A stretch of DNA of 63,222 bases, the filler included, from Perkinsus chesapeaki ATCC PRA-425 (Eukaryota; Protista; Perkinsozoa): the NCBI GenBank assembly GCA_013115145.1. It is 5 parts of 5 records of this genome, joined end to end, with 100 filler letters (N's around TTAATTAATTAA, not from the genome) between each part and the next. Parts side by side here need not be neighbours in the genome. Positions count along the whole stretch, not along the records: positions 1 to 24,470 come from JAAPAO010000542.1; positions 24,571 to 56,091 come from JAAPAO010000418.1; 3 more parts are not named here. The stretch is one strand, 5' to 3'. Made by a program: the position numbers and the translations under genes. Numbering within the stretch: the stretch's first letter is position 1; the number at the start of each line of letters is the position of its first letter. Below, one piece after another: positions 84 to 51,446 of this stretch. A model generated the notes under the pieces. That model did not search any database. It was not told the origin of the DNA and saw only the letters and a program-made list of their open reading frames with translations.

Positions 84-1010
84 CTCAGTTCTCAGATCAA
101 ATAGCTTCTGTTTGCATTCGCGTTCTAAGCCGCGACATTGCATATCTTTCGCAACCTCACAAAGCTCGCTCAACCTCTCCGCTGCAACATCTACACTCTG
201 GCCATATACATATCTAAAAACGTAAAACATGAAACGCTTCGCTCCGCCTTCTAACTACCTTAACACCGCTCTAACAGCCCATGTTGAAGCGACGTCCCTC
301 AAATCAAGGTACGAAACTCCCGAAGAATTTTCCGTTTCAAAAGGGCTTTTAAAACCGTCATCATTTTCCTCCGAACTCGAGTCCGCAGATGTGCTGCTGC
401 TATTCCTTCTCGTATCAAGTCTACTAATTAAAGCAGGACAACCAGCGGCCAAAATGCACCTTAAAAACGACAGGTGAGGGAATCGAACCGGATACCTTTC
501 GATTACTTGTGGGCTGGCAGAATGCTCGGCGAGGCAGATGGATAATCGACGGTGTAGATCCAAACGTCAGCCAGCTGCCCGTCGTGCTCAGTCAGCATTC
601 GCCACAGGCGATCCAGTTGCGCGTTAAGAACCTAACCAAAATCTTTACAGTATGTAAAGATTCTCCCCTCGCATAAGACAACTCGTTCGAAACGAATCAT
701 TTTCCAGAATCAATTTTCGCACATTAAAAACTTTTCTACGATCCACTGACCAACCCCAAGAATTCCCAAGACCGCGCGCCACGAAATAGCTCACATTGGC
801 TGGAGCTGCTAGTGTAAGATTCCTCTTCGTAGATTCTTCCTCCTCCTCCTCCTCCTCCTTCTCTTCGATGGTGGTGGTCGGTGATGCAGCTAACGGATGC
901 TGTGCCAAAGCTGGCAACATCAAAACCGAAACCAATAGCGATCAATAATAAATAACAAACCTACAAAAAGACCGCGCGCCACTAAATTATCCTCCCAATA
1001 CCATTCACCA
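84..1010 (-). CDS. BTB/POZ-domain protein, multi-exon, 3' end runs off the window
   Basis: Splicing introns at about 215-259 and 460-506 gives LADVWIYTV...PAHK|CILAAGCPAL...LDLRDVASTWAVRAVLR|YVYGQSVDVAAERLSELCEVAKDMQCRGLERECKQKL, the BTB pattern (DV..AHK.ILAA..; l.dv..af..ll.YvY; L...A..yq...L...C). N-terminus is hydrophobic followed by a poly-G tract. Confidence 0.8.
478..506 (-). other. tRNA T-arm/B-box fragment in 47-nt BTB intron (sense)
   Basis: Intron 460-506 reads GTAATCGAAAGGTATCCGGTTCGATTCCCTCACCTGTCGTTTTTAAG. Confidence 0.7.
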
Positions 1011-1120
1011 ATGTTGCCGGAAGAAAAAAACTTTCGGATGAAAAAGTATCGGTCGAGATTTGCAGACGGGCATACGGCCGTCTCCCTGTTCACTTCGAAC
1101 CACTACCCCTTTCACAAGGC

Positions 1121-1617
1121 ATGTCTATCCGAGACCCGTACGATGACCGTACGGCCTACCAGACGTCTAAGATTTGCACTTGCAACAGACGAGCCAATAA
1201 AGATATCGATCTGTTGTTATCTTTGAGGAGGATGTCGGGTAAGCATGAGATTGCCCACGCCCGGCATGCAGGGTTGTGCAACCAATTTTACTCCTACTAA
1301 ACGGCAGCCAAGTCATTTGCCATGATTTCTGGAACTTTAGACCAAGCACTTCGAGCCAACCCCACCGAATGGCATATGTAAAAAGCCGCTCTCAAGACCT
1401 TTATGAACACTGCGCGAGTCGTCGAGATATTCGCTCTTCTGAGAGAGCTATCCAACAAAGCACGTCGTATACGGTAGTGTTGGATGTGTCATTCCATCTC
1501 TTGCCTATAAGGCGGCGGTGATGCTCACAATGCATTGTTTGACCCTCGCCGTGGTCAATTTTCAAGATCAACTGCGCGATATTATTAGTAATAATAGCAA
1601 CTATCAAAGTTGCTAAC
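1121..1617 (+). CDS. small multi-exon hypothetical protein, divergent from the BTB gene
   Basis: ATG at 1121 (MSIRDPYDD...), GTAAGC..CAG intron at about 1239-1307, further GT..AG introns, last exon ending ...NYQSC-stop. No family recognised. Confidence 0.3.
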
Positions 1618-2525: not shown

Positions 2526-5500
2526 TCACCTACACATAGTCGTCAACTCCACAGAAATGATATTAGTGTTGTATTTTAACAAAACGTCCCCATACCGACT
2601 TTTCCGTTTTTTCTTTTTATTTTCTTCCTCTAACAGTCGATGTGCCAATTGCTCTCTATCCGGCTCCTGCGGTATTATAAACGTATCTTTCTCCTTACCA
2701 CCAAGTTGCAATGGTGTGCCTGAAGAAGAAAATTATTATAATACTGTTGTTATTAATAGTATAAAACTGTCAATTAATAATTATGTGAATTAGTGAATAT
2801 TAATACATTCACTATAATTAGTATATAATTATATTATATGTATTTTTTAATTAATTTATTATAATTAGTGAATTATTAATTATCACTAATTTACCCCATT
2901 GCTCGAGCCCTTGAGAAATTCCAATGAAGACGGACCCTGCAGGCATAGTAGCGGCACCCATAATCACACTATTGGATTACTCAACCATACCCACTGAAAC
3001 ACCTCCACAGACCGGAACACACAACAATGGTAAAACTCATTCCACTTATCGATATATAAATCGATATATTAATCCACCCCGAAATTCTAATTCAGAGGCA
3101 CTACAGTCGAGGCAGTGCAACCGGTTTAGATCCGCTGGTTAAAATAAGTAAGGATCCACCAATATTGACTATCTTCCAGAAAAAAAAGGAAATTAAAGTA
3201 AGCCGCCCTCCTGATTGGAAAGTTCTTGCAAAAGGCCGATCCTCTCTTACCGTCTTACTTGCTATTCGACCATAAGTCATAATAGGAGTAACATCAACAC
3301 CTGGCACCTAAACATAACAACAAACATAATCACAACAATATACATTATATAAATATACTGGCATGTCGATGATAAGAGGCAAAAGGTCACCAAAGAAGAG
3401 GCGAAAAGATTCCTTGTTAAAATTATAGTTGTCGGATAATTTCTATTATTGTTATAATTAGTAATTATAATACAGATAAAATATATCCTACATTCATTGT
3501 GCAATAATTGCAGTTCCCTTCTCTCCATCAGACGACCCAGGTTCGATTCCCACTCCCTCCATTCTCACCATCGAAGGCGTTGCTAAATACCCTCCTGGTT
3601 TGGCTGGATCAAACCGTCCAGCTAAGGCCATGCTGTTGTTGTCTCGTTCACGAATCCCTTCCTCTCGAGCAGCGGCACGATTCTCTATTTGAATCTGACC
3701 GGGAATCAACTTCACGCGCCACGAAATTAACGAGAAAGACATGCAGTTGGTTTTCTCAAAAGAAAGTAATTATCCGAAACCTTCGAACGGGAAGTTCTAC
3801 CCAGAAAATTTTCCGAAAAATGAAAACGAAGTTCATTTCCCAAATGAAAGAGTATAAATTTTCCCGAAAAATCCTTCATTTTCCGGAAAAATCCAAAATT
3901 TTCCCCAAAAAAAACAAAATTTTCCTGGAATTTACCTCAGTAAAGTCCCTCTCGTAATCTGTCGTATGAAATCTGGTATTAACATTATCCGGTTTATTTT
4001 CATACATAAATGGTTGCTTCTGCACACCATTACTATGAAATAACAATGGGTTACCTAATCACAAATCTTGCTAATCTTGCTCAACCTTGTATTTCCTCAA
4101 CGCTTACGCGCCACTGCTCCTGACGAATTCAACGCCAATGCGACTCCTTCGACTTTATCTCCGAGAGCAGCTGCTTCTTTTTTATCCGCTAGCATTGCCT
4201 ACCATCACATTTTTCTTGCGCGCCACGAAATTATGTTACATTATGTGCGTTCGCTTGTCCTTCTATCCAACTTTGTTCTTCTCGTTTCTTCTGTAAATGT
4301 TCCTCATAAGCTGATTGAAAAGATGCGTTGTCTTCCGAGCCATATCTGACAGAGTGAGTATAAAGCAGAATATCACCAGCCTTCGAAATACTGACATAGA
4401 CGGGAAGCCTAACCTTTGAAAGAAGAGCCTTCTTTCCACGGTCTATTTCAGCACCCCACTTCGCTTTACACCATTTGAAGATCTAGTCAGTGCGAGCCAA
4501 GGACGAACAAATAAAGCCGATACGAGATTAGGAGAAGCCACCTATTTGGTGTTCACCGATTAACTCTCCAACTGAAGTAATCCAATCCACAAGTGTAACA
4601 ACAAAAACCTAATATTTTATAAATCACTTGTTCCATGTCTAAGAGACACTACCAAGGAACACACTACTGATTCGCTGCCATTGCCGTTCAGAACGGTACA
4701 GTGTGTTGTGGTGCCTTTTGGGACACACAAAATATTCCTCGATGAGGAAACATGACGAGCAGCCTCAACCAAAAACAGCAAGAGATTCATACAGACAAAC
4801 AGAGAAGCCAGCTTCTTACTTGGCGTGGAAGTGATCCAATCGAACGCCCAAATCAACAATGACTCCTTTCCCGCTTGCCAATGACATATCAACCAGCTCC
4901 TTAGTATGGGCATCAATACTAATTACACTTCACATCATTCCAACCTAAAGATATGCCTACCTTCGACCTGTAAGATCTACTATTTCCTGTCCGGTACAGA
5001 AATGACTTGATGTGTTCGATGATGGCAGTCTGCTGGTAGATGACGAAGATGACGAGGAACCATCAAATTCGCCTGGGAGTGCTTTACGCGGTTCACCTAG
5101 GAAATACCAATTACATAACCGGCACCCCGAACCTAGACAACTTTGCTCATTGAAAAATCAGCTGTCAATTTTACTGGTACAACTTTCCGGGCCGCCGGCA
5201 GCTACGTCTTCATACAGTCGGTCAATTTCACGTAACTTGAGTATCAGGATGAAACGGTTATATCTATTATATTATAAGTTATAATATAATATATATGGAA
5301 TTATAATTTATAACCCCAGTTGAAACATACTGCCACTTTCCACATTTACTACCCTCCGTCCTCATTGGTGCTCCTGGTGTATAATTCATAGCGGCATTCC
5401 TGGCATTGATTCCCGGAGTCACTGGTGTCAGTCTCGCCAATTCTTCACGGAGCGCTACGGCCTGAACGGTACGATAATGGATAAAATATCAATCCCGCAA

Positions 5501-7962: not shown

Positions 7963-8332
7963 TCATGTTATACCATTCCCTTTACCATATTTTCTATGGA
8001 CCACATAAATGATCGCTATTATTAGTACAAAACAAACCGCCATCAAAACCGCCTTATTCATCATCACTTTCCGGCTCATACTCTGGATAGTCCGCCGAGC
8101 CATCGTAAGATGCTCATCGATATCATTGAAATGATCTCTGGTGCGATTAATTATTTCTCGTTGGCCCCTGAGATACCCTTGCTGAGATTCGAACCCGGGA
8201 CCTTCCGATAGCTAGTCATGAACTACCTCAAGTCGCCCATAACTCCTAACGCGACATCCTCCGTCTCGAGAACTGTCCTCTTGGCCTCCTCTAGCTTGCG
8301 ATTCCCCGATTCCAACCTGCTACAAAAATGTA
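7963..8332 (-). CDS. VTI1: Vti1-like Qb-SNARE, C-terminal exons (SNARE motif plus tail anchor); 5' exons not resolved
   Basis: RLESGNRKLEEAKRTVLETEDVALGVMGDLR|GQREIINRTRDHFNDIDEHLTMARRTIQSMSRKVMMNKAVLMAVCFVLIIAIIYVV, joined in frame across intron 8168-8226. Confidence 0.85.
8184..8210 (-). other. tRNA T-arm/B-box fragment in 59-nt VTI1 intron (sense)
   Basis: ATCGGAAGGTCCCGGGTTCGAATCTC. Confidence 0.72.
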
Positions 8333-12804: not shown

Positions 12805-15800
12805 ATGGATGAATTTCGCGGAGAAGCGATCGTATCGGATGCCAGCAGCTCGGCGGCGAGTGACATGGAAAATCATAAGTTTCGTCGAAGAAGTGAAGGA
12901 GCGAACGGCGCAACGAATGCAGGAAATGATGAGCTCGATGATGACGTGCCGATTGTGGATTACCATCCGGTTGAGGCCGTCGATCTCCGGAAAGTTCTGA
13001 CCACTGAGGAGGCAACTGCTGTGAAATTTACCAAGGACAAGCTGGTAGCATTGAAAATAGGAGTGTTCTGTTTACACTACTGCCGGCAGTTGATCGGTAC
13101 GGCTCTCGGGTCGATATATGCCTTCGATGGGCATGGAGAGTTGGTGGGGTCATGGAGGAACCATACCAAAGCGGTGAGAAGGAGGGGCTCAGTTGTTAGA
13201 GGATTTCGAGGAACGGGAATTTATTGATGCATATTTTGGTCGTTGGTCGAAAAATTGGCGGAATCTTCCACCGGAAGGCTTTCTAGAAGCTTACCTCACA
13301 TTACTTCGACCGGCCGAAATGTGTCCATATTATAACTGCGGATAGCCCCTCTACACATTCTCGTCCAATGCTGAATATTTGCTGTTGGCAAGACTCGCGG
13401 TTTTCTCCATATCATTGATTTGCGGGAAAATTACTGGGAAAAGGCAGTGATGGATCTCAGGGACGATTCGGGATCGAAGGTATCCCGACGGAAAGGCTAT
13501 CTTAAGAGCGTTGAAAAATCTGCTGTTGTTACGATTCGAATGATTATTGGTGATTAATGAGTAGTCCATCTTCTACGATCTCTCATATCTCCGGTGACAG
13601 AAGGGGAGTGTTACTGTTGTTGTTTGTTATCAGGTTTCTTGCATCGATACGGATTATACAGAGAAGTACGTAGCGAGCTGTTCAGAGGATGCATCGGTAG
13701 TATCTGCGGGAAAGGGGGCAACTGAGGTTTGATGAGGAGGGAACAGAGAAGGAGGGGAAAGAGGTTCAATTTGATACACTGTGGCTGCTGACACTCCTTG
13801 CAACCACTGTATGCCAGTGGCCTCCGTTCACATTGACATTAGGGAGTAATGGTGGAACGTCGAGAACTGTTGGGCTCAAAAGGAATATGTTGGATGTTCC
13901 CACTTTTTATGCGACCTATTCCCTATCACACTCTCCATTAGTAAGAGCGTTCGACTCTGTATTGTACGTGATTGAGCGCAGCAGCACAGTTAACCGTGAA
14001 CCGTGCTCTTACAGTCTGTCGGTAGAAGTCGCAGTGCCTCATGCAGGCACCTGAAATGTTCCCCGGGGGAACATGTTTTGCGCCTCCGGAGGAGGCGGGA
14101 ACATTTCCTGGTAGAGTTGGTTAGGAACATTAGTTAGGAACATTGGTTAGGAAGCTGTTCCCAGGAGAATTAAAGTTTACGCCACAAGTTTATAAAAATA
14201 TGCAGCAACCGTACCATTGATGCCATCTTATCTCGCACTTGGCATTGATTATGATGTATTACCAAAATATTACTCCTCCCACTTTGACGTTTCTTAGGTA
14301 TGTGTTGTTGCACTAAAACCGACTCCAGATGGCAGCCGAATAACAGCCACAATGGACCTTTCAATCAATAGTAATGCTACTAGGACAGCATCAACCACTC
14401 ATTTGTTTCATGACCAGGTCAAGACCAACCAGCGCTGGTATCTCGGCCACTCCGAGCAGTTGCCATCAACCCTCTCTATGGCTCCAGTAATATGACCGCT
14501 CCCGGTCAAAATTTATCTGAACTCTTACTGGGATAAAATGCTCCGAATCGGCCTATATCCTTTGTTCTAGGTGGAAAGCGATCAGTAGTTTTTGGAGGAG
14601 AGGATTACAAGCTCGTCATGACGAAGCGAGGCACGTTATTCAATAATAATTCGATTTTGCATTCGGGTGGGGCAGAAGGTATCTTGTCGATGGTCTATTT
14701 CGATGTTTGCAGGAGAAGGCACGATAACCTGTATTAAATGGATTAACAACATGGTTGCTTGGACGAATCTCAAGGGAATGAAAGTAGACAATTTCGTGGC
14801 GCAGTGACTATCGCGTGGTGGTGGTAGATTTATGATGTGGCGTCCAAGCATAAAGTGACATTCCTGCCTCGGCCGATTCTCGATGAATCTGTCAACAGCC
14901 ACGCGGCAGCCTTGTCAGCGAAGAGTAATGCTAGCCGGTCCGGGAAATCTTATGATTTTCCAGTTGCGTGGCTCACTGAGGAGTTGATAGCGTTGAGCTG
15001 GGGGCCGGTCGTCAGAGTTTGCCGTCTTCTGGCGACGCGGGTTGATAGTCCTGGGCAGTCTGGAAAAGGAACGATCATTCGATACGCTCAGGTGGTTCAC
15101 TTGCTGTCATTTCAACCTCAAGATACGCCGTTGAGTGTTCAGGTCATCGGTGCATTTTCGTTCACGGCTGATGTAACAGTGAGGGGGATTGGCCTGTTCG
15201 ATAGAGGAGAAGGTGAAATCTGCGTCACGCGCCACAGAATTAGCTCTCAGGTATTCCTAGCACCTCTGATGATTTCATGTCGACAACACAATTGTCATTA
15301 TTGACGTGCCCAGTCGAGGGCGTTAAAGTTGGAGAGGATAAGGCCGCTGAATCCGGTAGTGGTCGGGTGGGCTGCAAAATAATTTAGCTTTTATTTGGGA
15401 ACAAAGCGCAGTTAGTTACTCAGTTGAAATACAAAGTGACTGCCAGTTAGTAATTTCTGTGTAAAAACACCTTATCGCCACTGTCACCGTGGGTTGGTAC
15501 TTTTTGAGGTATAGTTGTATTATGTACTATGAATCCTTAGACTGACTCGAATGGGTACTACTACCACACTGCGCTTGTCATAGACGTCCCACTGAACGCC
15601 TATTTTCCCGTGGCTTTCGTCGGGACGGGTAGTGAATTCGATCATACGGATCTGTACGGGGCAATGCTCGGAGCTGTGTTATCTTCTCGTGGCGAGATTG
15701 TCGTAGTCCTTTTCTCTCGTAATACAGTAGGCGTACGTTCGAAGTTTCCCTTCTCAGATGTATCCAACTCATTAGTCCATCATGTGGTTAACCTTAAAGG

Positions 15801-18800
15801 CGAGGCTGCTTTCTCGGATAGGGTAAGTGACTTCAGTCCGCAGGGGGCTTGATTGTTGCCACTTCTTGTACACTTCATTTCGAGCTTTTTGCAGGTGCCA
15901 CTAGTGTCGAAAGGAGACAGCCGCTGGGTTCTACCGCTCGAAACGGCATTAGCGTAAGCGAGGAATAGAGATTAAATACGAAGCTTCTCCGTGCAGATTC
16001 GCGCCGTCAACAACATCACAATCATCAGCAGTGCAGAGCCGACAATCGCTGGCTTTCGTGGTTACTCCAACTGAACTTGTTATGATCACTCGACGCTCAC
16101 TAATGGACCATGCGCTGTGGCTTATTGCCAAACGACAGTAGGGATAGCAAGTATAATAGGATTCCGTAGTGCTTGTGGCAGATTTGAGGAGGCTGTTGAA
16201 GTTTCGACGGCGATGGGGAATACTACGGCCATGGAGACTGTCATGAGTAGGTGAGCTGAAATTCAACTCTTGTTAGAAAAACATCTCATTTTTCATATCT
16301 CGTCCTCCGCTACCAACGTGGGACGCATGCTTTGCTACATGGTATTTCATGTACAACTGGCAGCAGTCTCCTAAAATGGTAAAGTTGTTTTATTCTCTTA
16401 TGTATAAGCCTTGTACTATAATGGCCGACCGATCTCCCGTAGGCAGTTTAAATGACGGAGTTAGTCCTCCCAGGTCTCTGCGGGAGAACAGTACAACGTA
16501 ACGTCAGTGTCGAACTGACCCGGTCGATCAGATGAAGAAAATCTGGGAATAGACTTCACTACTTTTGTTTAGCCATAGCATTCGCTTAGAGCGTATAGTA
16601 CAATCTTTCCCGCTGCCGTGTAGAATTGCTGAAGTTGGTTCGATTATATATAAAAACTATTATACCCTTATCCATATTGTATGCCTATGAGTGTAACCAG
16701 TGACCGTCATCCGCCGAAGGTAGAATGTAGCGTGTATGATACGCGGTGTATCCCCAAATACGGACTTTCGACTCCATGATCATGACGTCTTGATCATGGA
16801 ATCGCTTCTACTAAGAAAGCTCCTTGTGGGAAGTGGCCTCTAACAAGCTTATGTACGACGCAGACATCCATACCGACCTGCCGCGGTTTGCTACGGTAGA
16901 TAATCTACCGTAGACCAACTACCTATCAAAAACTAACTATGCAAACTTGAAAGTAGTTTGGCTGTTGGAAACTCGTCATAGACATCGACCGTCATAGAGA
17001 TCGCAGGGAGAGTTCCGGCAGCGTTCGAGATCCTGGATTGGCGGCAGCTTAGCGTTGCTATGCATGACATTGTCATGATGACAATGTGGCTTACTTGTCA
17101 TACAGATCGTCTATTTTACCGTGATCAACTTCAGCGATGATCACTAGGAAATTATTTAATATTGGCCTACTTTACGATTGCCGAAGATTCCCGAAGCTCG
17201 GCCGCTTGATCCGGACCCACTGGATCACTTTTATATCAGGAGGATGTGACGGAGCCAAAGTGCTTGTGTATTGAGGTCACACACTTCACACTTAACTTCG
17301 TTTCCCAAAACGTTTGAGTGGTTTGCCCAACCCAACGAAATCTCTTTTGTGTCTGAAAGATGCTACCGCTCAAAGATCCGTATGTGGTCTCATAACGAGG
17401 AGACTAGCTCATGTTAGGAGGCTTACCTAGCTGCTAACCTCTTACTGCTACTAACTCTAACTTGGATTCTAATCCAAATCTCCCAGCTCTAACGAATCGT
17501 AGAGATTTTGGTCTATTCTCAGGTTCCGCATTACAGCCCCTATTGAGCGACAAAGAGTACCACAGAGCAGCTACACTTACTTCTCTAATTGATAGCGGGA
17601 AGCACGGGTAACAAAAAAGTCCCGTGCGTGGGAATCGAACCTGCGTCTCAGGAAAATATGGAGATCGATTGCTGAGGAGTTCGAGGCTCACAATGCGCTG
17701 CAGTATTTGGTTGCATACTTACCATTGGATATCCAAGTAGCCGAGGACAGCGGGCTGTTGGAGGGTGAAATCTACGATAAAACCATTACAAGGTAGGAGT
17801 CAAGCCTGGAACATATTCATAAGATGCTATCAGAAATGTATTAGAAAGTGCTAAGTGGTTCACTGTGTGGACCAGTTACAGCGTTTGTAATGGTTCTCAA
17901 ATATATGACTGCTTTTGCCCCTGAGCGAAATTTCTGCCTGCAATTTCCGCCGTCATTCCGTATTTCAAAATTACTACAGAACTTCCGTCGTAACAATTAA
18001 TCCATAACTAGTGAATACAGATGGTCCGATGATTGTATATTGGGGAAGTTGGATGGTATTTATTTTTCATTAATAACGACTGGGTTTTTGCGTCTTTGCC
18101 GGCTCTGTATACCCTATTTGTTAGTGATGATTGTTCCTCTCTCAGTGTTATAATACATCAGCCCACTCGACTGCTGCCTTTACTTCAACGTTGGCCACGA
18201 GAACTCTACTCCGAGTCTCGTATAGTGAAACTCATCGGAGAGGTCATCCCTGAGGTGAGCACCTGTTGATCTGTCCACACTATTATAACCATCAGCATTG
18301 GACTGTGAATTGGTCCTTGGTCCATCATCCTCCACCAGAAGAGACCGGTGGTGATGACATTGATCGTGATGACGAACAAGATGATGAAGATGACGTATTG
18401 AAACTGGACCCTACTAAAGAAAGAGGTATCAAAGCACCTGAACAATAATACACTTGTTGTTCTCGTCACTCCGGTGTTTACGTTGTACCACTGTCATGTT
18501 GGTGATATTACCGCCATATGGATTCGCACAATTTATAAATCTATATTGGCAGGCATATTCGTATATGTAATACGCATACCACTTCAACCCCTTACACTCT
18601 TATTACACCGAACTTATACGACGCCCGCGAGCGGGAGAAGGTATACATTTATACGCTACTATTTGTCCTTTCTACAAGGTTTTCTCAGCAGTCGGCGGTG
18701 GGTGAGAAATTTTGAGTCCGGTTTTCGTGTTGATATATTATACCATCTAATACTGCATTATATCATATTTCTCCTACTGTCGCTTATCGTGTATGAGATG

Positions 18801-27032: not shown

Positions 27033-27197
27033 ATGACAAACTCTGATTAATAAAAGCTTCTTAATTCTCATTTAACTTGTCCCCTTTTTTGTGTTACTTT
27101 AGTACGGTTATATCCAACGCAACAATGGCACTATTGGACATGGCATGGGGGGAATCTTACAACAGACAACACAACCATGCGTTTGGTATCTCCTTCA

Positions 27198-27752
27198 TCA
27201 CTCATCCTGTTCCTCGCACCATTGCTCAATCGCCGAAGCGAGCTCCTCAGCTGTCTGAGGTGTGAAGGGCTTCGTACAGAAATGATCGAAATTGGGTGCC
27301 CAGCTTTGAGTTTTGAGATCCTCAACTCTACCAGCGGAGCAGCACACCAACATAACGGTACTAAAAGGGAGGGCCGGGAATCGAACCCACGACCTTTCGG
27401 ATGAAAGCCTTACCGAGCGAGCTCCCCCTCTTCCATCATTGTTCTGATCCTCTCAGCGGCTTCGGCGCCTCCCATTTTGGGGGGCATGTTGAGGTCTAGT
27501 AGAACAATGAGTGGATCTTCGGCATCGTCGCTCTCTTGGAGCTCGAGCTGAGGCCACGAAACGGCTACAGGTCGCCACAAACACAGCGTTATTTACCACG
27601 TTCTCGATAGCATCCTCACCGCAGTTGACTCTTTTAATTCTGTCCTCATCAAAACCGTGGCATGTAAGGCTCATTTCGGCCACATCCAAGTTGTCGTCTT
27701 CGTCATCGGCAAGGACCAAGTCGACAGCTTCGACACCCGAAAATGTGGGCAT
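27198..27752 (-). CDS. single-domain CheY-like response regulator receiver protein, 150 aa, 3 exons
   Basis: Exons 27752-27597, 27547-27414 and 27360-27198 total 453 nt: MPTFSGVEAVDLVLADDEDDNLDVAEMSL...ENV|LELQ...IVLLDLNMPPKMGGAEAAERIR...LAR|TVMLVCCSAG...FDHFCTKPFT. Acidic pair, phospho-Asp, Ser and Lys are all present. Confidence 0.9.
27365..27413 (-). other. tRNA 3'-half-like fragment in 53-nt response-regulator intron (sense)
   Basis: GTAAGGCTTTCATCCGAAAGGTCGTGGGTTCGATTCCCGGCCCTCCCTTTTAG. Confidence 0.72.
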
Positions 27753-31599: not shown

Positions 31600-31900
31600 A
31601 TCATCATCCTCCTGTCTGTATTGGTCTCTACCACTGCCACTAATCGATCGCTAGGGCGCAAGTTTTGGTGATCGATGGTGTTGTTGTTGCTGCTGGTGGT
31701 GACGGTAGGAATTGGTGCCCTTGTCGTTCGCGCGGAGGGATGAAGCTCATCACTGACAAAGATGGTAATTTGGTGGCGCGTGACAGGTTGTTGTTGTTTC
31801 TCACTATTGAAGGCTGCGGTTTGCGATACCCGCGTGCATCTATTAACTGTTTTATACTCAACGAGAGGATTCCGTCAGACTCATTGGTGAGTACATCTTC
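31600..31900 (-). CDS. exons of a hypothetical protein
   Basis: AG|..VLTNESDGILSLSIKQLIDAR|GT..AG exon structure; no family recognised. Confidence 0.3.
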
Positions 31901-32263: not shown

Positions 32264-33226
32264 ATGACTAATTCCTCGGATACTCATGGTGCGGTTGAGG
32301 AGAAAAAAAGAGCGTCTGGGAATCGAACTTCCGCGGAGGAGATTTCAGCAGCCCAAATCGAGAGTGATCGACCGCTCAGGCAAAGCAAACCAGTTGCATC
32401 GCAGTCAGAGCTGACGGAAGCCGAGCGAACAATCCTGGAGCTCGAGAATCTTGGGGTTGGTCTCCGACTACGCCACGTTTGGCGTCAGCTAGTCGTCAGG
32501 TGAAATTCCCAAGCATCGCTGAGCTCGGGTATGACTTGTACTTAAAGGACTCCCATGGCATTGACGAGAAGGTGAAATGCACCCCCGATTGCCCGTGATT
32601 ACTTGTACAGGAAATCGCCGAGCTCGCTCGAGAGTTTCAGACTGTTAATGTTATCGGCGATGGAGTGATAACAGCAATAGAGGCCCGTTTGGCGTATAAC
32701 CGGTAGGGTGGCTTCTAGACGGTAGCGAATACAGTCGTCTTAGGGCTGGGGGATCAAGCAGCGATGATGAATTCACAGATGTGAGGGAACACATATCGCT
32801 TTCAGCTCTGAAGTCTTTTGGTAGGCTCTCAACCAGACAGACCCATCAGGAAAAGGCCTTTTGGATTTTCAAGACTTTATCAGGTGATTTGCCGCATTGC
32901 GTGGTCTGTCCCGGTTGGCGCAACTACTTTCATCAGGCTCGTGTCTTTGCTGAGGAAGAGTGTTATTACCGAGCATGAGATTATTGAAGCATTTAAGATA
33001 TTTGATAGAGATGGTGGAGGAACAATCGATGCCGCGGAGTTGACTAATGTGATGACCTCTATGGGGGATGCGATGACAGAAGAAGAAGCCGACGGTATGA
33101 TTAGACAGGCAGACACCACCGGCACTGGTGAGAAGGCTGCAAGAAGTACCCCTGTGAGCGATCGTATTGGATTTCAGGTGAGGTTGATTACCATGAGTTT
33201 GCAAAGTTGGTGTTGCATACATTGTG
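32264..33226 (+). CDS. calmodulin-like EF-hand protein, multi-exon; N-terminal exons uncertain
   Basis: EIIEAFKIFDRDGGGTIDAAELTNVMTSMGDAMTEEEADGMIRQADTTGTG|EVDYHEF (EF3/EF4); upstream EIAELAREFQTVNVIGDGVITAIE is a degenerate EF1. Confidence 0.85.
32303..32348 (-). other. B-box-like fragment in putative 60-nt intron 32289-32348 of the calmodulin-like gene (antisense)
   Basis: Minus strand TGAAATCTCCTCCGCGGAAGTTCGATTCCCAGACGCTC followed by TTTTTTT; the intron is in frame, so splicing is less certain. Confidence 0.55.
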
Positions 33227-40372: not shown

Positions 40373-40531
40373 GCTTGTGGGGTAACACTGGGAGACGAAG
40401 TAAAGATATAATATTAACTTACGAGACAACAACTAACAGTAATAGCGATCGTTCGATACAGCGCCACAATATTCCCAGGAACGCAACACCGGCTATAACT
40501 TGATATTGAAAAACTGTGAAAGAAAAGGGGT

Positions 40532-43108
40532 TTAGGGGGACTGGACGGACATGGCAGCGCCCTTGTCCGCTTTGATTTCGGTAGCAACATCAGCAGCATC
40601 GGCTCCGAGTATCTGAGCTCTATAAGCAGGGATATCCTCCGGGTTATTATAGACAACCTGTGGATAGCCCCTCGGCCACCAATTAGCTCGTCCGAAGAGT
40701 GTCAGCAGGGACGGAGTGACTAGGCCTTGCATGACAAAGGCATCCAATAGTATAGCCGTTACAAGAATGAAGCCAGACTGATTCACCATCGGTGTCGAGG
40801 AGAATATTAGTCCACAGAAAGTTATCATCATAATACCGCCAGCAAGCGCAATAACCATACCAGCCTTCCACACGCCAATGTGCACGGCGGCCTTGTCCGA
40901 AACACCACGATCATGTTCCTCAACAACTCTCCCTAGAAAGAAAATATCGTAATCCAGACTGAGACCCAAGACGATTGAAAATGCTAGCGGTGCTGATATC
41001 CAGGAAAGACCGTCAGTTGATGAATCACTGGCTACTGCGGGCCAGTTGAGGAAATTAAGCCACCCTCTGAGATAAACTCCGGCCGCGAGGCCAAATGAGA
41101 ATATTAATGTTATAGCAATTGTTAGCACTCCTCTGACCGCAATGACGAAAGACCTATACACCACGCCGACCAGCACGAGACACACAGTTGCCGTTGCTGC
41201 AATGAAAGCCGGAAGACTAGCAACAACAGACGACATAGAATCATGCGATGCTACAGATATTCCAGTAATCCAAACACGTATTTGACCACCGCTTTGTTTC
41301 TCAGTATCGGAAACGAGACGACGCAATTCAGTGACGAACTCCGACGCCTTCAGAGATGTCGGCACATCGTCAGTTATCAACGTTGCCATCACAGCATCAC
41401 CCAACGGACTTGAACTCTTCCTAAGACCACCTTGAAACTGCTTACATAATATAGAGGTACAAGAGGGTGAGGTTAAGAACTTGGCCGACTGGTAGTTCAC
41501 CTCGACGGGATCCTTCCCGGGCACTTTCACATACATCGGGCTCAATACGGATCCCTGAGGATATTGTTGCATTAACCTCTGATCAATTTCCCGACACAAA
41601 TCCAAACTGCTTGTCCAGAACTGTTCGCTCAATATGGTGCCTTCCATTGGGTTCTCGAAAACCACCGTGAATGGGCCGCTCATTCCAGGAGTGAATCTTT
41701 GCGACATCCTTGCCGACGTCTCGCTTACGGAAGATGACCGTGGACTTGCAGTGGAGACGTTAGACGTTATTGTTATAAAAGAGCAGGCCCACCCAAATAC
41801 ACCAGCAATAATGCAAAGAAGTAATATAGATACCACTGCCGCCCATGGTGTGGTAACACCCTTACCCCAACTGTACCAAAAACGCCATCTCAGCCAACGC
41901 TGGAGGCACGAACGAGCCGTGGTAGAAGTTGCCCCGCTCATATTGAGGTCACGACTGGGAACGTCTGAGGCATTACGCTGCCTATCCCCGCCGCAGCAGC
42001 AGCCTTTGCCGAAGTATCCAAAGAAGGTCGGGAATGTGATGATGAGAGTAGGTACCAATGTAAGATTCACACCAACCGCGCAGAGAGTCGAAAGCATCAG
42101 TGCCAAACCAATGCTCCGGAAAAGATCCACTGGTATTATCATGAGGCACACGAAGCATACAAATAGAATGCTGCCCGAACTGATAACAACGTGGCCGCTA
42201 TATTGTAACATTTCTTGGCACGCTTCATACGGAGATCTTTGGTTCGGCCCAGTGACTTCTTGACGGAATCTTGTAAGTTGGATGAGAGAATAATCAATAC
42301 ATAGTGCCATGAGTAGGAATAACATCATCATTGGGCCACCGGTACTGACGGACATGAGAAGTGATAATAGATAAAGGCAGGAGCCACAGATAGCGATGGA
42401 GAATAACAAAGCGGTTAATGGTAAAAGCAGCAGACGCCAAGAACGTAGAGCATAAGCCAGGAGGAGGAATGCCAACGGTAATACTACAGCATGAATAATG
42501 CCTAACTCGATTTCACTAACTTTGGAGGACTCCTCGCCCAGAGCGAGGATTCCAGCCCAACCAACAAACAGAGAAATGTTACTGTATTTTTGACCAACTA
42601 AGTCAGCGGTCTTCTTCTCGATATCCCCGATGTTTTTAACATCCATCCCGAACATCACAGTGAAGATTGCCGACTTGTTGTCCGGCGATAGATACGTACT
42701 CGTCGGTTCACCAGACCCTATTGCGGTGAAGTAATCGGCGACTTGAACACTAATATTCTCAGGGAATGATCCCCGAACCGTTTCTGTGATATCCTGCAAA
42801 AGGTTGTTACCGAGAAGATCACCTGGCTGCTGGTCTTCAAGGGAGACGAAGAGAACTTCGGGAGAATGGAAATTGCCTCCAGGGAAGAGCCTGGTGGTCT
42901 CAAGCGACGCCACGTAAGCTGGTGAGCCCGCTGGAGCAACCAAGGCGCTCGTTAAATTGTCAAACATGTGAATCACACCAACAACACCAAGCCCAGCAAG
43001 AATCAGCCACAAAGGCAGGAGGACATAACGGAGGTTATGGAGGCACCGCTGATATTTGGAGACCAATTGAGCGTGCTTCCCAATGAAGCTAGTACAGCTT
43101 GTTATCAT
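40532..43108 (-). CDS. MMPL-family transporter, copy B (divergent), intronless
   Basis: ALCIDYSLIQLTRFRQE and GLSLDYDIFFLGRVVEE; same architecture as copy A. Confidence 0.92.
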   Translation of the reverse strand: MITSCTSFIGKHAQLVSKYQRCLHNLRYVLLPLWLILAGLGVVGVIHMFDNLTSALVAPAGSPAYVASLETTRLFPGGNFHSPEVLFVSLEDQQPGDLLGNNLLQDITETVRGSFPENISVQVADYFTAIGSGEPTSTYLSPDNKSAIFTVMFGMDVKNIGDIEKKTADLVGQKYSNISLFVGWAGILALGEESSKVSEIELGIIHAVVLPLAFLLLAYALRSWRLLLLPLTALLFSIAICGSCLYLLSLLMSVSTGGPMMMLFLLMALCIDYSLIQLTRFRQEVTGPNQRSPYEACQEMLQYSGHVVISSGSILFVCFVCLMIIPVDLFRSIGLALMLSTLCAVGVNLTLVPTLIITFPTFFGYFGKGCCCGGDRQRNASDVPSRDLNMSGATSTTARSCLQRWLRWRFWYSWGKGVTTPWAAVVSILLLCIIAGVFGWACSFITITSNVSTASPRSSSVSETSARMSQRFTPGMSGPFTVVFENPMEGTILSEQFWTSSLDLCREIDQRLMQQYPQGSVLSPMYVKVPGKDPVEVNYQSAKFLTSPSCTSILCKQFQGGLRKSSSPLGDAVMATLITDDVPTSLKASEFVTELRRLVSDTEKQSGGQIRVWITGISVASHDSMSSVVASLPAFIAATATVCLVLVGVVYRSFVIAVRGVLTIAITLIFSFGLAAGVYLRGWLNFLNWPAVASDSSTDGLSWISAPLAFSIVLGLSLDYDIFFLGRVVEEHDRGVSDKAAVHIGVWKAGMVIALAGGIMMITFCGLIFSSTPMVNQSGFILVTAILLDAFVMQGLVTPSLLTLFGRANWWPRGYPQVVYNNPEDIPAYRAQILGADAADVATEIKADKGAAMSVQSP

Positions 43109-43319
43109 TTATTAATGTGGGTTGAAGACTACAGCTGCGAAAAGATCGAGAATGCTAATATATTTAATCGATACTTAACACCACTCTGGAAAACACTTAT
43201 CGAAAGGCACGAGAGGGGTCCAGGACCCCGGGCCCTAATAAAATTCACGTTAATAGAATTCAGGGTTAATGCTAAGGTAATGAAGGCCACAACAAAGTGC
43301 GTGAGAGGTTGAGTGATGG

Positions 43320-45866
43320 TCAGGATTGATCGCTGATAATGCCAGAGCATGTGCTTTGTTTCTCCTTGTAGAGAATATCCATAGCATCGTTACATACAAT
43401 AGGTGGAGATTTACGTGGCCACCAATTAAGTCGACCGATAGCCTTGAGCAATGACGGTGTTATCAAGGGACGCATCACAAAGGTATCAAAAATAACAGCG
43501 GTGACTAATAGGACACCAGCTTGATTCATCATGGGAACAGATGAGAATAGAAGACCAGAAAAAGCAATTGTCATTATTGTGCCGGCCATAGAAATGACAG
43601 GTCCAGTCTTCCATACACCAACTTGTATGGCTGCTTCATCAGATAAGCCATTCTCGTGCTCCTCAACAATCCTTCCAAGAAGGAATATATCATAATCTAA
43701 TGCCAAACCAAGTATAATAGAAAAACCAATAGTTACCACCATCCATGATATTTCACTAGTAACAGCTGGTGATATGGATTCAATATGGAGGAATTGTAAC
43801 AATCCCAGCTGATGTGTAGCAACCAATACACCAAAGCCTACTATAATGGTTAAAGCTATAGTAAATATACTTCTTATAGGAATCATAACAGACTTATAAA
43901 CAATACCAATAGCAAGCAGACACGTACCTGCAGTTGCTCCCATGAATAGGGGAACTTCCCGGGATAGGGAAACACCAGCATCGGTTGTCGAGGCGCTCAT
44001 CCCAATCAGCCACACTTTAAATACATGACCATGCTCAGCATTTAGATCATCAACAACGTCTCTGAGACGATGAACAAACTCCGATGAGCTTGTAGAAGTC
44101 GGTGGTTGATCTGATAGGACTGTTACTTTCAATGCTGTGTGATCTGCATTCACACTTTCATTAAAGGCTGTCTGAACGCCAATGCATATTGATGTTATAC
44201 ATGATGGATTTAGTAGTTGCTCGACCAATGGTAAACTAAGAATCATTGGCTTTTCATTCGGAACTCGAGTATAAAATAGCCCTATCATGGCAGCATGGCT
44301 CTGATCTGCAAGTAAGATAGTATCGATAGATTCACTAGCAACCATAGCTGTTGACCAGAAAGGTTCAGATAGCACTGTAGAATCTGTAGTTGCCTCGAAC
44401 ACTAGTACATACGGACCACCGATGCCGGAAGGGAACTTAGCCGATGCTTGTTTGTCGAGGTCGGCTACACTGGACCCTCGAGGCAAATATTGACGAACAT
44501 GGTTACTCAAGAGTATCTTACTACACGACCAGCCCAACACAATAGAAAGCACCACGGCAATGACTATAGAGGCCAAAAGCGCATACTTCGTAGTTGCAAA
44601 CCGTCCCCAACGAAACCACAGCGGGGGATCGAATCTACAACATCTACCACCACGACACCGTTGATTGGATGAGGCGCCTTCATCAACGGTATCACATTTA
44701 GGACACAGAAAACTATCGAAGTCGGCAAAAAAACGGGGGAATGCGAGAATGAATGTCGGGGTGACCGTTAGGGTAAGTGTGATGCAGTGCAGAAGAGAAA
44801 TGACAAAAGATAATGCTACAGAGGTGAACGTTTGCACAACAAGTATCCAAGCGAAGCACAGCACGAGAATACCACCGGATGCCAGAACTACTCCGCCGCT
44901 CGTACGTAACATCTCGATACAGGCATCCTCAATCGTTTGTTCTTGCCTAACAACCTCTTCATGAAATCTGGTCAATAAAATGAGAGAGTAGTCTATGGAC
45001 AAAGCCAGAAGTATTACTATCGTGAGTATCGGTGATGCTGATGAAGCTCTTATCCACATGCTAATAATATATAGAGACGCACAACTGTATGTGACAGACA
45101 TTGCAATGACCAGTAATTGCAACAGTAATAGTCTCCATGATCTTAAACTTATGGCGAGAACGACAAATGTGATAGGGATAACGAAGATATGTATGATAAG
45201 AAGATCTCTTTCGAGGATAGCTGGGACCTCTTTGGCGAAAGTATGTGGACCACTGAACTGCACGTCGAGATTGAAAGAGGCAAAGTCATTTTCAAGCATA
45301 ATAATGACTTCTTGTTCTTGACGATATATTTCATTTGTAGTCCAATTATGTGAAAACATAACAGTCATTATTGATGACTTGTTATTATCCGATACAAATA
45401 ACCTTGCCACTCCTGGTAGAGCTTGAGCAGATGTGTACCCTTGTATTGAAACACCCGATGAATCTTTCCAGAAATCTTCAACCTTCATTGTTATATTATT
45501 TATCAAACCATCTGTTATAATATCATAAGCACTTGATTCTGGGAGCTCCACCAATAAGACTTCAGGTGTTAAAGTTGCTTCCGATCCGTACAGCCTCTCG
45601 ACTGCTCTGACAGCATGCCAACTCGGGTACCCACGTGGTGGGAGTATGGTGTTGTTAACGTGCTCGTAAACATGCAGTGTACCCACGATAGCCAATGAAA
45701 ATGAGACAGCCCAAAATGCGATTAAAACATAACGGAACCTCTTCAAAGCCGCGACGTACTTCGGGATGAACTGCCTGCTATTCGGGACAGAAACGACACA
45801 AAAGCGAGTCATGGCAACAAAAAACTGGAATCCATAAAAATATGTAAATGCATGTGACTGAAGCAA
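43320..45866 (-). CDS. MMPL-family transporter, copy C, intronless, mosaic near-identity with copy A
   Basis: ALSIDYSLILLTRFHEE and GLALDYDIFLLGRIVEE; long nucleotide tracts nearly identical to copy A. Confidence 0.92.
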   Translation of the reverse strand: MLQSHAFTYFYGFQFFVAMTRFCVVSVPNSRQFIPKYVAALKRFRYVLIAFWAVSFSLAIVGTLHVYEHVNNTILPPRGYPSWHAVRAVERLYGSEATLTPEVLLVELPESSAYDIITDGLINNITMKVEDFWKDSSGVSIQGYTSAQALPGVARLFVSDNNKSSIMTVMFSHNWTTNEIYRQEQEVIIMLENDFASFNLDVQFSGPHTFAKEVPAILERDLLIIHIFVIPITFVVLAISLRSWRLLLLQLLVIAMSVTYSCASLYIISMWIRASSASPILTIVILLALSIDYSLILLTRFHEEVVRQEQTIEDACIEMLRTSGGVVLASGGILVLCFAWILVVQTFTSVALSFVISLLHCITLTLTVTPTFILAFPRFFADFDSFLCPKCDTVDEGASSNQRCRGGRCCRFDPPLWFRWGRFATTKYALLASIVIAVVLSIVLGWSCSKILLSNHVRQYLPRGSSVADLDKQASAKFPSGIGGPYVLVFEATTDSTVLSEPFWSTAMVASESIDTILLADQSHAAMIGLFYTRVPNEKPMILSLPLVEQLLNPSCITSICIGVQTAFNESVNADHTALKVTVLSDQPPTSTSSSEFVHRLRDVVDDLNAEHGHVFKVWLIGMSASTTDAGVSLSREVPLFMGATAGTCLLAIGIVYKSVMIPIRSIFTIALTIIVGFGVLVATHQLGLLQFLHIESISPAVTSEISWMVVTIGFSIILGLALDYDIFLLGRIVEEHENGLSDEAAIQVGVWKTGPVISMAGTIMTIAFSGLLFSSVPMMNQAGVLLVTAVIFDTFVMRPLITPSLLKAIGRLNWWPRKSPPIVCNDAMDILYKEKQSTCSGIISDQS

Positions 45867-46830: not shown

Positions 46831-46966
46831 GACTGCTCACCCTCAGTCACGCAACCAGCACCTCGAACCGATTCACCACCGTTTTACTGTCCAGAGAAAG
46901 AAAAGCCGCCGACAAGGTCGAAGACACCGTAACGTGTTCGCGATTTCATCCGTTGTCTACTTTAAA

Positions 46967-47479: not shown

Positions 47480-48676
47480 AAATGAGCAGTCACCATCTGC
47501 AGGCGCGAAGTTGTACGAAGCCTACCGATATCCACCTTACATTGATTTCTCGGCCTCTTCACCAGGTTGCACAACTTCCATGGCGCTCATCGGCGAGGAC
47601 TGTCGCGCTCGCTTCTTGCTTGGGGAGGCGACCTGCCCGGGCGCGCTCTCCTGCTCAGCCTCAGAGTCCGAGGATTCCGAGTCAGAGGAGTCCGACGAAT
47701 CCGATGATGACTCAGAGGAATCAGAGGAATCACTCTCCGAGGAGGACGAGGACGAATCTGAGGTAAGAACCTGATTAAGTACTCTAAGTTTTCATTTCGG
47801 ATAACTATGCTGGTAGTCCTGTAATATCAACAACGAGATCCAGTTTGGAGTGATCATCGTTCCTGACTCGCGGGTCATATCGGAGAGCGCTCTCCACTTC
47901 GTAACAACCCCCAGAAGTCGATGACATATGAACGTGTGCAAGCTAAAATAGTATTGAACTGAGCACCACCAGCCGGGCATGGGCAGACCATCAATAGGTA
48001 TATGCTCATTTATGCTGAACTACAGAGTAGAGTACTTTACATCCGAGACCGATGCTATGGGTACAGGCTTCGAAATTCAACGTCCATTGCACGGCTCAAC
48101 GGAGGCGCTACTGCGCGGCGTGGCGCCATTGCGCAATTTGCGAGAATGGGCTACGCCGCAGCGGCATATTTTTTGAATGTTCCGGCAAAATAATTGCTAA
48201 ATTTGGTGCCCCTTCCGAAGGGGCCCTCCGAGTGGTTGAATTCCGTAGATCTCTGCAACAGGCAACTAGCGGCTCCGGTTAGACTGATTATAGGGTAATA
48301 AGTCTGGAATCGCCAAGTTGATGACTGGAAAATTAATGGCCTCCACCCTCTGCCACATGATCACATATTGCAACGGTACAGAAACCACCGTGAAAGTCGA
48401 GAGACATCAACACTGAATGTACCTTCCTTATCTCTTGCTCGCTTAGAAGGCCCCACCGGCCCAGTTGGAGGTGCCACCTTCGATGGGCAGGCATCACTAT
48501 CATCATCAGGAAATAAATTATCCATTTTACCACTTGTGGGAATCGAATCAGGGCGAAGGTGTCGAGAGTACGTAGACAGTGAACGGATGGCGGCCGGATG
48601 GGAGGCCAAAGAGACGAACAAGCAAACTAAAGGGGGAATAGCTCCGCCCTCTCAGCGCAACTCACACACTTCATAG
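47480..48676 (+). CDS. hypothetical multi-exon protein with Ser/Glu/Asp-rich tract
   Basis: Acidic exon SESEDSESEESDESDDD...ESE|GTAAG, later short exons and open terminal exon 48368-48676. Confidence 0.4.
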
Positions 48677-48768
48677 GAAAAGTTTTGCAAATAATAATAT
48701 ACAGTGATTTACGTGGGATCATCCGACCGCCGCCGCCGGGCTCGGGCTTGGGCGCTGCTGGTGATATA

Positions 48769-51446
48769 TCATCCTCTCCATTCCTCATCGTCACTATTCT
48801 CTTTCTTTCTGCCATAAGTAGTGCGGCGGCCCCCTCCACCCCCGCCACCTATGCTTTGGGCCCCACGAGTGTTCATGCTTTCGCCTCCCTCGGACTCTGC
48901 CGATTCACTGCTGCTTTCATCATCACTATCAAACTCGCTCTCAGAAGACTCGTCATCTGACCAAGAGTCGCTTCCATTGAGTGCCAGTAGTGTCTTACAC
49001 ATTCCTCTGCTTCGTCTCGAAGCTTCCCTCGGCGGTTGATGTCGGAGTGGCACCTCCACCTGATTCGACTGCGACTCGCTGCGCAAAGCCATTCCAGCTT
49101 GTTGCTGAAATATTGCCATAGCGGCCGCCGGAGACATCTGCTGCAATTGAGCCAGGGATTGCCTAGCAGCCGGAGTTGAAGCTTGCGGTATCGCCTGGGT
49201 TGTGGCGGCGGCCGTCTGCTGCGGCGGCGGTTGGAGTACCTGAAAAACATGTGGTAAATCCCCCGGCGGCTGAAAGTTCCTAGGTACCCTTGTCAAGAGG
49301 AAGCCAGTATGTTCTCTTGGTATCCAACTCATCGCTTCACGACACTCCTTAGCATATTTCATCCATGACGGCGTCGACATAGAAATCCATTGAAGCACTA
49401 AACAGTTCGACGTCCCTCCCCATCCGACCAGCACCCTACCGGCTGCTTGGCTGAACTTTCCAGAGGTGTCATTGCATATAGCGACGAGAGCCTGCGGTGG
49501 TCGCCTGATCAAGAGCCTGCTTATCTCTCCCGATAAATGTTGCTCTCTCACCCGGCTGCCTGTTGCTGCTTATCGGTAGGACTGCGAACGAACGCTGGAT
49601 GCGCTACTACAGCACTTGGCGAACCCGTGGCATCACCGAATACGAGACATGAAAGATTCCTCTCCAGATCCTGAGAGCCTTTCTATCGACCGCATCTCCT
49701 CGAGCACGCTTACCGTGAGGGGCGCCCATGTGGCTGCGTAACAGAAAGTTTGGCAAAAGATCTTGGCGTCTGGGATGAAGATGAATCGCTCATCGTAGCT
49801 GCTCGGCTCCGGTGCTGCTGCATTCAGCAATGAGCCCATTGGTCCGGCCTGATAATGACGAAGTTTCCATGTGAGAGCAAGCCACGGGATCTACCTTATC
49901 TCGGCTCAAAAAACGAGGGCAGAAGGGGTTGCCTTCGGTTGTCAAATAACTTGAAAATCTCTCAGCTAAATCTTTGCTCCACTGAAAGCAAGACAAAGTG
50001 GTCAAGCGGATATGCCGCAATCCCTCCATCCGATCGACTCGGGTTCGATCCCCACCTTCATTCCCTGCGATTTCAAATAAGACAAAACATCTTTCATCGC
50101 CGCCTGTGTTGCCCCATCCAATTCGGGTCCGTTTGACGGGGCCTCTTGGACATTATCCACGGTGCTTCGCTCCGCCGGTTCTTTTTTAACTTCTTCTTTT
50201 CCATCACCAGCAGCAGCGTCCTTCATTTCAGTGTCTTCGTCCGCTTCTTCCTCCTTAGTTTCGGTTCCATCAGCAGCAGCACCGTTGTCCGCTGCAGCTT
50301 CTGACTTTGGTTTTTCGTCTGTCTTTTCAGCCTCCGGCTGCGCCTCCACCAAACTGCAAGTAAACCAGAGATTGAGACCATTGTGTGATTCGGAAGTGCG
50401 AAATTCAAGGTAAAGGACTTTTCAATTTCTGTTCCAGATTAACGGCGGCGATTATCGAAATTAACATGAACAAGTATGAGGCGGGCAGAGGGGCTTAAGA
50501 GAGGGGTTACCTTCGTAAATATGCAGCGACTTGATCTCGCTTTCTGAAAAAGTCGGCCAGAAGCCAAACTCCAAGTAGTCGTTGACCAAGGTTTAACAGG
50601 GGGATGCTGAGACCGCGTTTGGTGAGGACAGTAAGGGCCATGAACCTGGAAAAAAAGGCCTCGTCTGGGATTCGTCCTAGACGACCATTCGCTCTGGTTC
50701 GTTAAAGTAACACAGGTCGCTACCTATGAAGTTGGTCGCAGTCCAAGGTTCCGGCAGTCGCTTTGGAAGTGTCAGCACAGCCGCATATCTTTTGCGCGAT
50801 TGTCGATGCGCCATTGGCTGCTCTCTCCGTTCTCGGTTCCTGTCGTTTAGCGTGCTGCTGTTGCTGCTGTTGGGCGTTGACAAGACTAGCAGCAAGGGAA
50901 GTCAAACGACGTCGAGAAAAGGCTTTAAATTGTACCGTTGCTGTTGCAGTTGTCGCAATTGGGCCAATCTGAGAGCCTCTCCAGAACGATCCACCTGTGA
51001 ATCACCATTCATCCAGGTGCCGGAGATTCCTACCTGAGCTTGCGGATGCTCTACACGACTAGCACTGTATGCCTCCTCCGGGACCTTCGCGCCTGCCTTA
51101 TACGCGGCCTGAGGGGGGACGAACCAACGTAACGAGGTCGACGGTCTAAGCGCAGACCTCCAAGACATCTGAACAATACTCCTCAAATTTCTCTCTGTCT
51201 CTGACAAACAGGCCGCTGGAGAACTCAGTCCAAGCTGATAGAAACTGCAGGGCGAATGCTGTGTTGAGTGGCGGTTGCTGAGGAGCTGCCTTGGGCTGAG
51301 GCGCTGCTGCCCGGGGAGCAGACGGCGCGCCTCCTGAAAAAAGTATCCTCGAAATGGAATATGGTGGCTATTTACCTTGCTGGTCGGGAGCGTGGGGGGC
51401 TGCCGATGAGGAGCTGGCCGCTGCATTGGCCGGTGGGACTGGATGC
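48769..51446 (-). CDS. large multi-exon hypothetical protein (Pro/Ala/Gln-rich and acidic segments)
   Basis: MHPVPPANAA...DQQ|GGAPSAP...EEYCSDVLE| start; in-frame phase-0 junction SQGMK|WSKDL across 49982-50055; 260-aa terminal ORF ending DDEEWRG. Confidence 0.6.
49982..50055 (+). other. 74-nt intron whose antisense is tRNA-like (A-box-like and B-box-like)
   Basis: Plus strand AGTGGTCAAGCG...CCCTCCATCCGATCGACTCGGGTTCGATCCCCAC; the donor GT is the complement of the terminal AC. Confidence 0.72.

Follow-up and report, generated by a model that had tools for sequence, protein, structure and literature searches.

Can fragments of tRNA genes give rise to spliceosomal introns? How such introns originate other than through introner bursts is an old and still open question, and it is raised by a stretch of 63,222 nucleotides from Perkinsus chesapeaki ATCC PRA-425 (assembly GCA_013115145.1), which consists of several contigs joined by N-linkers and is called the window below. 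Perkinsus genes are described as intron-rich, with introns mostly shorter than 100 bp, in an earlier report (PMC3101222). In the window, introns of several genes carry a B-box, the tRNA-gene motif bound by transcription factor IIIC (TFIIIC). An initial annotation had listed seven such motifs in introns of unrelated genes and had proposed either a tRNA-derived, intron-seeding element family or an intragenic network of TFIIIC sites. We conclude from the present analysis that the feature is real and apparently undescribed, and that it comprises tRNA-derived relics and sites resembling extra-TFIIIC (ETC) sites, with a plausible role in intron origin.

Results

B-box motifs in introns

All seven B-box-type motifs were recovered where the initial annotation had placed them. 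Exact matches were counted against an order-3 background in the window masked for the tRNA-Pro gene, the duplicated genes, the satellites and the retro-like end. The exact motif GGTTCRANYCC was observed five times against an expectation of 0.235 (P = 5e-6), and the earlier estimate of about one chance hit per window was therefore too high. With one mismatch allowed, the excess over shuffled sequence was modest (21 matches versus a mean of 11.09, at least 21 being reached in 2 of 100 shuffles). In the masked window TTCGATTCCC, picked out post hoc, was among the top 10-mers, with six occurrences versus 0.10 expected. In the unmasked window GGTTCGANYC had seven matches, namely six intronic sites and the intact tRNA-Pro (Table 1); its A57 variant, which is carried by 32% of the reference tRNAs, had none. 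The location of the six sites in introns (6/6) gave P = 5e-4 against the whole window and 0.036 against non-coding DNA alone. These values depend on a rough gene model, which found 114 introns in all and recovered 17 of the 21 with RNA support on which it had been trained, but left out the middle part of the gene at 17608; after correction by hand, 28% of the window was intron, 51% exon and 21% other.

Table 1. Coordinates of the B-box introns, the intact tRNA gene and the second motif in the window.
Position	Strand	Feature	Host and orientation	B-box	Basis
460..506	-	47-nt intron	sense	479-489	spliced in X1 and X2
3308..3568	-	261-nt intron	antisense	3540-3550	spliced in X1 and X2
8168..8226	-	59-nt intron	VTI1-like SNARE gene, sense	8185-8195, one mismatch	reading frame
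17608..17651	+	44-nt intron, tRNA-like 3' end on - strand	antisense	17631-17641	reading frame
27361..27413	-	53-nt intron	response-regulator gene, sense	27377-27387	reading frame
49982..50055	-	74-nt intron	antisense	50042-50052	reading frame
57904..57975	-	tRNA-Pro(CGG), intact			ARAGORN and Rfam
14784..14827	+	44-nt intron resembling a tRNA 5' half (A-box, D-stem), holds ATTNNGTGGCGC			gene model only
781-787, 981-987, 3721-3727, 4225-4231, 15234-15240, 19762-19768; variant at 2387	-	ATTNNGTGGCGC
2216-2222, 14791-14797, 31768-31774	+	ATTNNGTGGCGC

Evidence for splicing came from contigs of two runs, X1 and X2, which belong to one study and are probably RNA according to the guess of the tool. 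These contigs covered two of the six flagged sites examined, with missing cover counting as no evidence on splicing, and 49982-50055 lies outside the stretches aligned to them. Both 460-506 and 3308-3568 are skipped at their GT-AG ends by contigs of both runs. The other four introns are each bounded by GT-AG, have a length of 2 mod 3 and bring in a stop if left unspliced, and their removal restores a single open frame; they are required by the reading frame. A Pfam V-SNARE_C match spans the intron at 8168-8226 (7-31 on one side, 34-66 on the other). Among the host genes named earlier, the SNARE and the response regulator are supported by Pfam, and the labels BTB, ESS2 and VPS41 were not confirmed in a scan of single exons. 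The response-regulator host (27150-27752, minus strand) is a small stand-alone receiver gene in an alveolate, with a weak Pfam Response_reg match in the upstream exon.

The remaining candidate, 32289-32348 (+), was dropped because it is open in frame and its peptide is kept in the P. olseni orthologue P0144 (GDRTSA versus GNRTSA). The global alignment score against P0144 was 766.5 unspliced versus 751.5 spliced, and the flank showed no tRNA likeness (p = 0.47); a homologue search with the calmodulin-like N-terminus alone gave no match, and P0144 was found by a search of the whole library. The segment is most likely coding sequence of the calmodulin-like gene, with a B-box-like match by chance. 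The statement that every strong match is intronic consequently holds for six of the seven, and of the three sense and four antisense copies counted earlier the sense number stands and the antisense number drops to three. The final six also exclude two further sites. The one at 48547 (-), which had been missed, lies outside predicted genes and is without a tRNA-like flank (p = 0.5); here a looser 10-mer resembling the B-box, at 48537-48549 (-), has A at 53 and, like three of the elements, continues with AC. The other, 51123, lies at 51109-51157 (-), a predicted 49-nt intron with a one-mismatch B-box and a weak tRNA-like flank (p = 0.044), and is a possible seventh relic; it was added to the six in the test of B-box intactness.

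tRNA likeness beyond the B-box

The reference tRNAs were calls in viral-contig loci (277 calls at 105 loci, 198 distinct, 188 anchored), the anchored set excluding undetermined calls and two loci fetched by an element-derived pattern. Flanks were scored with an isotype-weighted profile of 150 class I references over positions of about 31-51, B-box excluded. The resulting p values were 0.0015 (460), 0.029 (3308), 1e-4 (8168), 0.065 (17608), 1e-4 (27361) and 0.0085 (49982), thus below 0.05 in five of the six, with a Fisher value of 1.4e-10 over all six. The initial annotation was right that the similarity continues past the B-box, that the three sense copies have the context ATC-GAAAGGT in common and, given the likeness outside the B-box in the correct register, that a tRNA derivation is supported. 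The best-matching references differ between elements (Thr, Asn, Arg or Pro, Glu or Gly, Leu). The six introns hold decayed pieces of tRNA genes, which likely stem from several isotypes.

Almost the whole intron at 460-506 corresponds to a tRNA 3' part, from about position 35 to 73, followed by T5 and AAG; at 27361-27413 the likeness covers positions of about 26-72 and gives way to T4 and AG, and in 8168-8226 the 3' two thirds are tRNA-like. Within 3308-3568 the tRNA-like piece, at about 3520-3561 on the plus strand, adjoins the donor, and the tRNA-like 3' end in 17608-17651 is followed by T6 at terminator distance, 14 nt past the T-loop. A near full-length decayed tRNA gene occupies 49992-50065 (+), its last 10 nt falling in an exon. 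It is the only one of the six elements with a perfect A-box at canonical spacing (49999-50009, 0 mismatches, null 0.002), the other five having 2-5 mismatches. T-runs had been noted after several elements; runs of T4 or longer at terminator distance were found in three of the six, beginning 12-14 nt past the T-loop (null 0.02), one of them opposite to the host strand.

The fold of these pieces is broken, the outer T-stem pairs being intact in 6/18 cases versus 99.5% in the reference tRNAs. Rfam and ARAGORN at default settings returned only tRNA-Pro from the window and no tRNA in the six elements, and local Rfam scans of three elements likewise returned a tRNA in 0/3. Relaxed ARAGORN called a pseudo-tRNA-Trp at 49992-50065; we did not count this call as evidence because shuffled windows yield 0.875 calls each (40 shuffles). 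Decay of CpG as the cause of the stem mismatches was also considered, but is not supported by the observed/expected CpG ratio of the window (0.86-0.91).

Intron ends and tRNA landmarks

On the tRNA strand the introns end at T54+27, +26, +25, +31, +24 and +11, the opposite ends being scattered. Five of the six ends therefore fall between T54+24 and +31, in both orientations and with the 261-nt intron included; in simulations five ends within 7 nt had a P of 0.007-0.013, for a statistic chosen after inspection. At the 460-506 intron the donor GTAAT equals positions 35-39, in the anticodon loop, of a Thr(TGT) reference (L010/L057; identity 14/17). At 27361-27413 the donor GT lines up with G26-T27 in an Asn(GTT) reference (L072; identity 18/26), and beyond it, in the exon, the identity falls to 2/10. 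A GT at these two registers is present in 13% and 12% of the references, respectively. A fixed 3' end combined with a variable 5' end is the pattern that would be expected from inserted 5'-truncated copies. The clustered ends and the two donors in register lend indirect support to the intron seeding suggested in the initial annotation.

One family or several sources

Outside the B-box, the mean pairwise identity among the six elements was 0.40 upstream and 0.35 downstream, versus 0.40/0.34 between reference tRNAs of different isotypes and 0.74/0.58 within an isotype. The three sense copies were closer to each other upstream (0.53-0.65) and may form a subfamily. Junction repeats of 2, 4, 3, 2, 1 and 2 nt showed no excess over the mean of 2.7 in a control set of 19 introns, and terminal complementarity of 2-5 nt, versus 3-7 in the control introns, gave no indication of terminal repeats. 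A shared non-tRNA body, a tail or a target duplication, as in short interspersed nuclear elements (SINEs), was found in none of the six copies examined. With identities as between isotypes and with neither junction nor terminal repeats, the single family that had been suggested is not supported.

Retention of the B-box

The B-box is without mismatch in five of the six elements and has one mismatch in the sixth, next to a scrambled stem. One rate of decay does not account for both results: with a per-site identity of 0.85 the stems are improbable (P = 3e-5), with one of 0.6 the B-boxes (P = 3e-4), and at 0.7 both are unlikely (0.014 and 0.002, respectively). Sites with tRNA-like flanks numbered seven versus 0.2 at 0-1 B-box mismatches, and those at two, three and four mismatches showed no excess (0, 6 and 31 versus 1.0, 7.9 and 37). 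These small numbers suggest that the B-box was probably kept by selection on a DNA element. In view of the known role of the B-box (PMC12409998), we regard the motifs as putative TFIIIC sites; an intact B-box beside scrambled stem positions gives indirect support to the proposed TFIIIC network.

An intact tRNA gene in a probable intron

Around the tRNA-Pro gene, which is sense to its host, a gene for a hypothetical protein, 57872-58000 is a 129-nt GT-AG segment with a stop if it is read through. The spliced model across it is identical to P0121 (103 residues), an annotation that is probably not independent, and the adjacent exon matches a P. chesapeaki protein at 98%. The intact tRNA-Pro thus probably sits in an intron, which the initial annotation had missed.

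Discussion

We propose that 5'-truncated copies of tRNA genes with a fixed 3' end created or refilled introns in which the B-boxes were then kept, and assign this explanation a probability of roughly 45%. From the observed tRNA likeness, broken stems, intronic location and match of the intron ends we infer the following route of insertion. Either a tRNA gene or its transcript would have been copied as far as the RNA polymerase III (Pol III) terminator or slightly beyond it. The copy would have been integrated in one or the other orientation, through repair capture or through reverse transcription without target duplication, and the survivors would be only those insertions that chanced to be spliceable. 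Sense copies would have obtained their donor from a tRNA-internal GT (positions 35-36 or 26-27) and their acceptor from the T-run plus AG; in antisense copies the donor would lie just past the tRNA 3' end. Afterwards the RNA fold would have decayed, the B-box probably being retained at the DNA level for TFIIIC, like an ETC site. Copies of tRNA genes are numerous in P. marinus, with 349 for Leu-CTT and 116 for Gly-GGA (PMC3706591).

Several points weigh against this proposal. There are no junction repeats and hence no positive mark of insertion. The donor of the VTI1 intron (8168-8226) is out of register, a GT being present there in 0% of the references, and the ten exon bases next to the 460-506 intron still match the reference in 5/10 positions. 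A relic of 40 nt inside an intron of 44-59 nt necessarily lies near both ends, and the T-run of the sense copies may be a mere pyrimidine tract, such as is present in 2 of the 19 control introns. All sites were found via the B-box, the correction for this ascertainment resting on 6-7 sites, and the isotype labels are tentative because the reference tRNAs are viral. Finally, the intact tRNA-Pro probably lies in an ordinary intron, so that the same picture would be given by intronic tRNA relics that deletions had shortened.

The latter possibility, the main rival, that relics of tRNA genes within pre-existing introns were trimmed to about 50 nt and kept their B-box by selection as an ETC chromatin site, without any gain of introns, is one that we hold to be doubtful yet worth serious weight. 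It would be in line with the probable intronic position of the intact tRNA-Pro, with a decay series leading from this intact gene over the relic with A- and B-box at 49992-50065 to the 3'-only relics, with scrambled stems beside kept B-boxes, and with a second DNA-level motif that is likewise mostly intronic; micro-homology of an old donor with a tRNA-internal GT could set the register. It does not predict, however, that the antisense copies and the 261-nt intron would show the constant 3' spacing from the intron end, and one relic extends 10 nt into coding sequence. A precedent is given by the CeRep3 putative tRNA pseudogenes of Caenorhabditis elegans, which resemble the elements described here in being tRNA-derived and intron-enriched, with a conserved B-box and no functional tRNA (PMC6950938, PMC12409998). 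In contrast, C. elegans keeps both A- and B-box and has clusters on chromosome arms, whereas here the B-box alone is kept in five of six elements and the tRNA piece is often the whole intron. ETC sites number eight in yeast and over 1800 in the human genome (PMC12409998).

Like the elements described here, tRNA-derived SINEs and retropseudogenes are dispersed copies derived from a Pol III promoter, occur in both orientations and combine a fixed 3' with a variable 5' end. Old, neutrally decaying copies of one such repeat, with the integrity of the B-box due to ascertainment, would agree with both orientations, with CCCAC after the B-box in three of the six elements, with the upstream identity among the three sense copies and with a density of about one copy per 10 kb. 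Such an origin is nevertheless unlikely, since the mean identity equals that between isotypes, the best references differ and there is no excess of decayed B-boxes; in contrast to SINEs, the elements have no shared body or A-rich tail past the tRNA part and no target-site duplications, and apparently derive from several isotypes. Dada transposons share the genus and fragment tRNA genes: according to PMC3706591, the Dada families of P. marinus have tRNA-Ile, -Leu, -Gly and -Tyr as their targets, the cut falls at the A-box, pieces of tRNA may become joined to foreign DNA, and one-ended events are described for zebrafish. That the relics are by-products of such elements is very improbable, because a cut at the A-box is expected, whereas the relics either begin near positions 21-41 or have their A-box intact. 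Moreover, Dada elements are transposase elements of 4.7-11 kb, and no Dada sequence was identified beside the relics, where no search with a Dada query was made. We give least credence of all to functional tRNA halves, whether split or circularly permuted, and to stable small RNAs excised from the introns. The introns do hold 3'-half-like pieces together with one 5'-half-like piece (14784-14827), but the T-stems are unpaired, half of the elements are antisense, the A-box is missing in five of six and Rfam recognizes none of them as a tRNA.

The insertion of truncated tRNA copies proposed here would resemble the introners of Amoebophrya, Micromonas and Aureococcus, in which the inserted DNA itself forms a spliceosomal intron, in unrelated genes (PMC7789003). 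The introners of Amoebophrya, a related lineage, carry inverted and direct repeats according to the same source, whereas the Perkinsus elements have neither terminal repeats nor high identity between copies, are canonical GT-AG introns in both orientations and would originate from tRNA genes. In a literature search that covered few subscription papers, PMC3978253 included, we found no account for Perkinsus of introns derived from tRNA genes or of B-boxes within introns. If tRNA-gene fragments seed introns, about 5% of the introns in the window (6 of about 114 predicted) would be traceable to a source other than transposons, which is directly testable with three sequenced Perkinsus species. If the B-boxes are bound, TFIIIC sites in gene bodies, about one per 10 kb, would be in use in a lineage that stands at the base of the dinoflagellates. 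It is a more speculative step, and one that we consider rather unlikely to hold in full, that Perkinsus builds new introns from truncated copies of its own tRNA genes, with the donor from the anticodon arm and the acceptor from the terminator (the reverse in antisense copies), the B-boxes forming a network of TFIIIC sites in gene bodies, thousands in number, and the second, A-box-like motif being a possible partner.

Second motif and further observations in the window

The heptamer ATTNNGTGGCGC, mostly followed by GYG, was noticed post hoc and occurs nine times versus 0.09 expected. Seven of the nine copies are intronic, in both orientations (three RNA-supported, the rest by model or eye), with P = 0.003 overall and 0.19 relative to non-coding DNA. 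The motif resembles a tRNA A-box without A14, which is retained in the copy at 14797. As one of ten instances tested, the predicted intron around this copy, 14784-14827, had its best match in the 5' half of tRNA-Met (p = 0.001). A pairing of ATTNNGTGGCGC with the B-boxes was rejected, the distance (about 180 nt to 18 kb) and the strand being inconsistent.

An intronless ABCG transporter gene at 10757-12572 (+) has its top hits among Perkinsus proteins, the identity being 91% with P. olseni, 73-88% with P. marinus and 75% with P. chesapeaki; its closest relatives outside Perkinsus are from oomycetes, with about 54% identity, and a horizontal transfer is possible. A metagenome scan with the ABCG protein as query returned two unrelated loci and no Perkinsus contig. 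Three tandem paralogous membrane-protein genes, apparently intronless, lie on the minus strand at 34940-37460, 40530-43110 and 43320-45810, and near-identical blocks common to the first and third suggest recent duplication or gene conversion. At 42812 an X2 contig ends in letters that may resemble the Perkinsus spliced leader. One short tandem satellite is present at the ends of three contig pieces (1-80, 57423-57560 and 61430-61507). Long open frames at 56200-57320 and 61608-63222 appear retrotransposon pol-like by eye, and the latter has the lowest CpG ratio (0.70).

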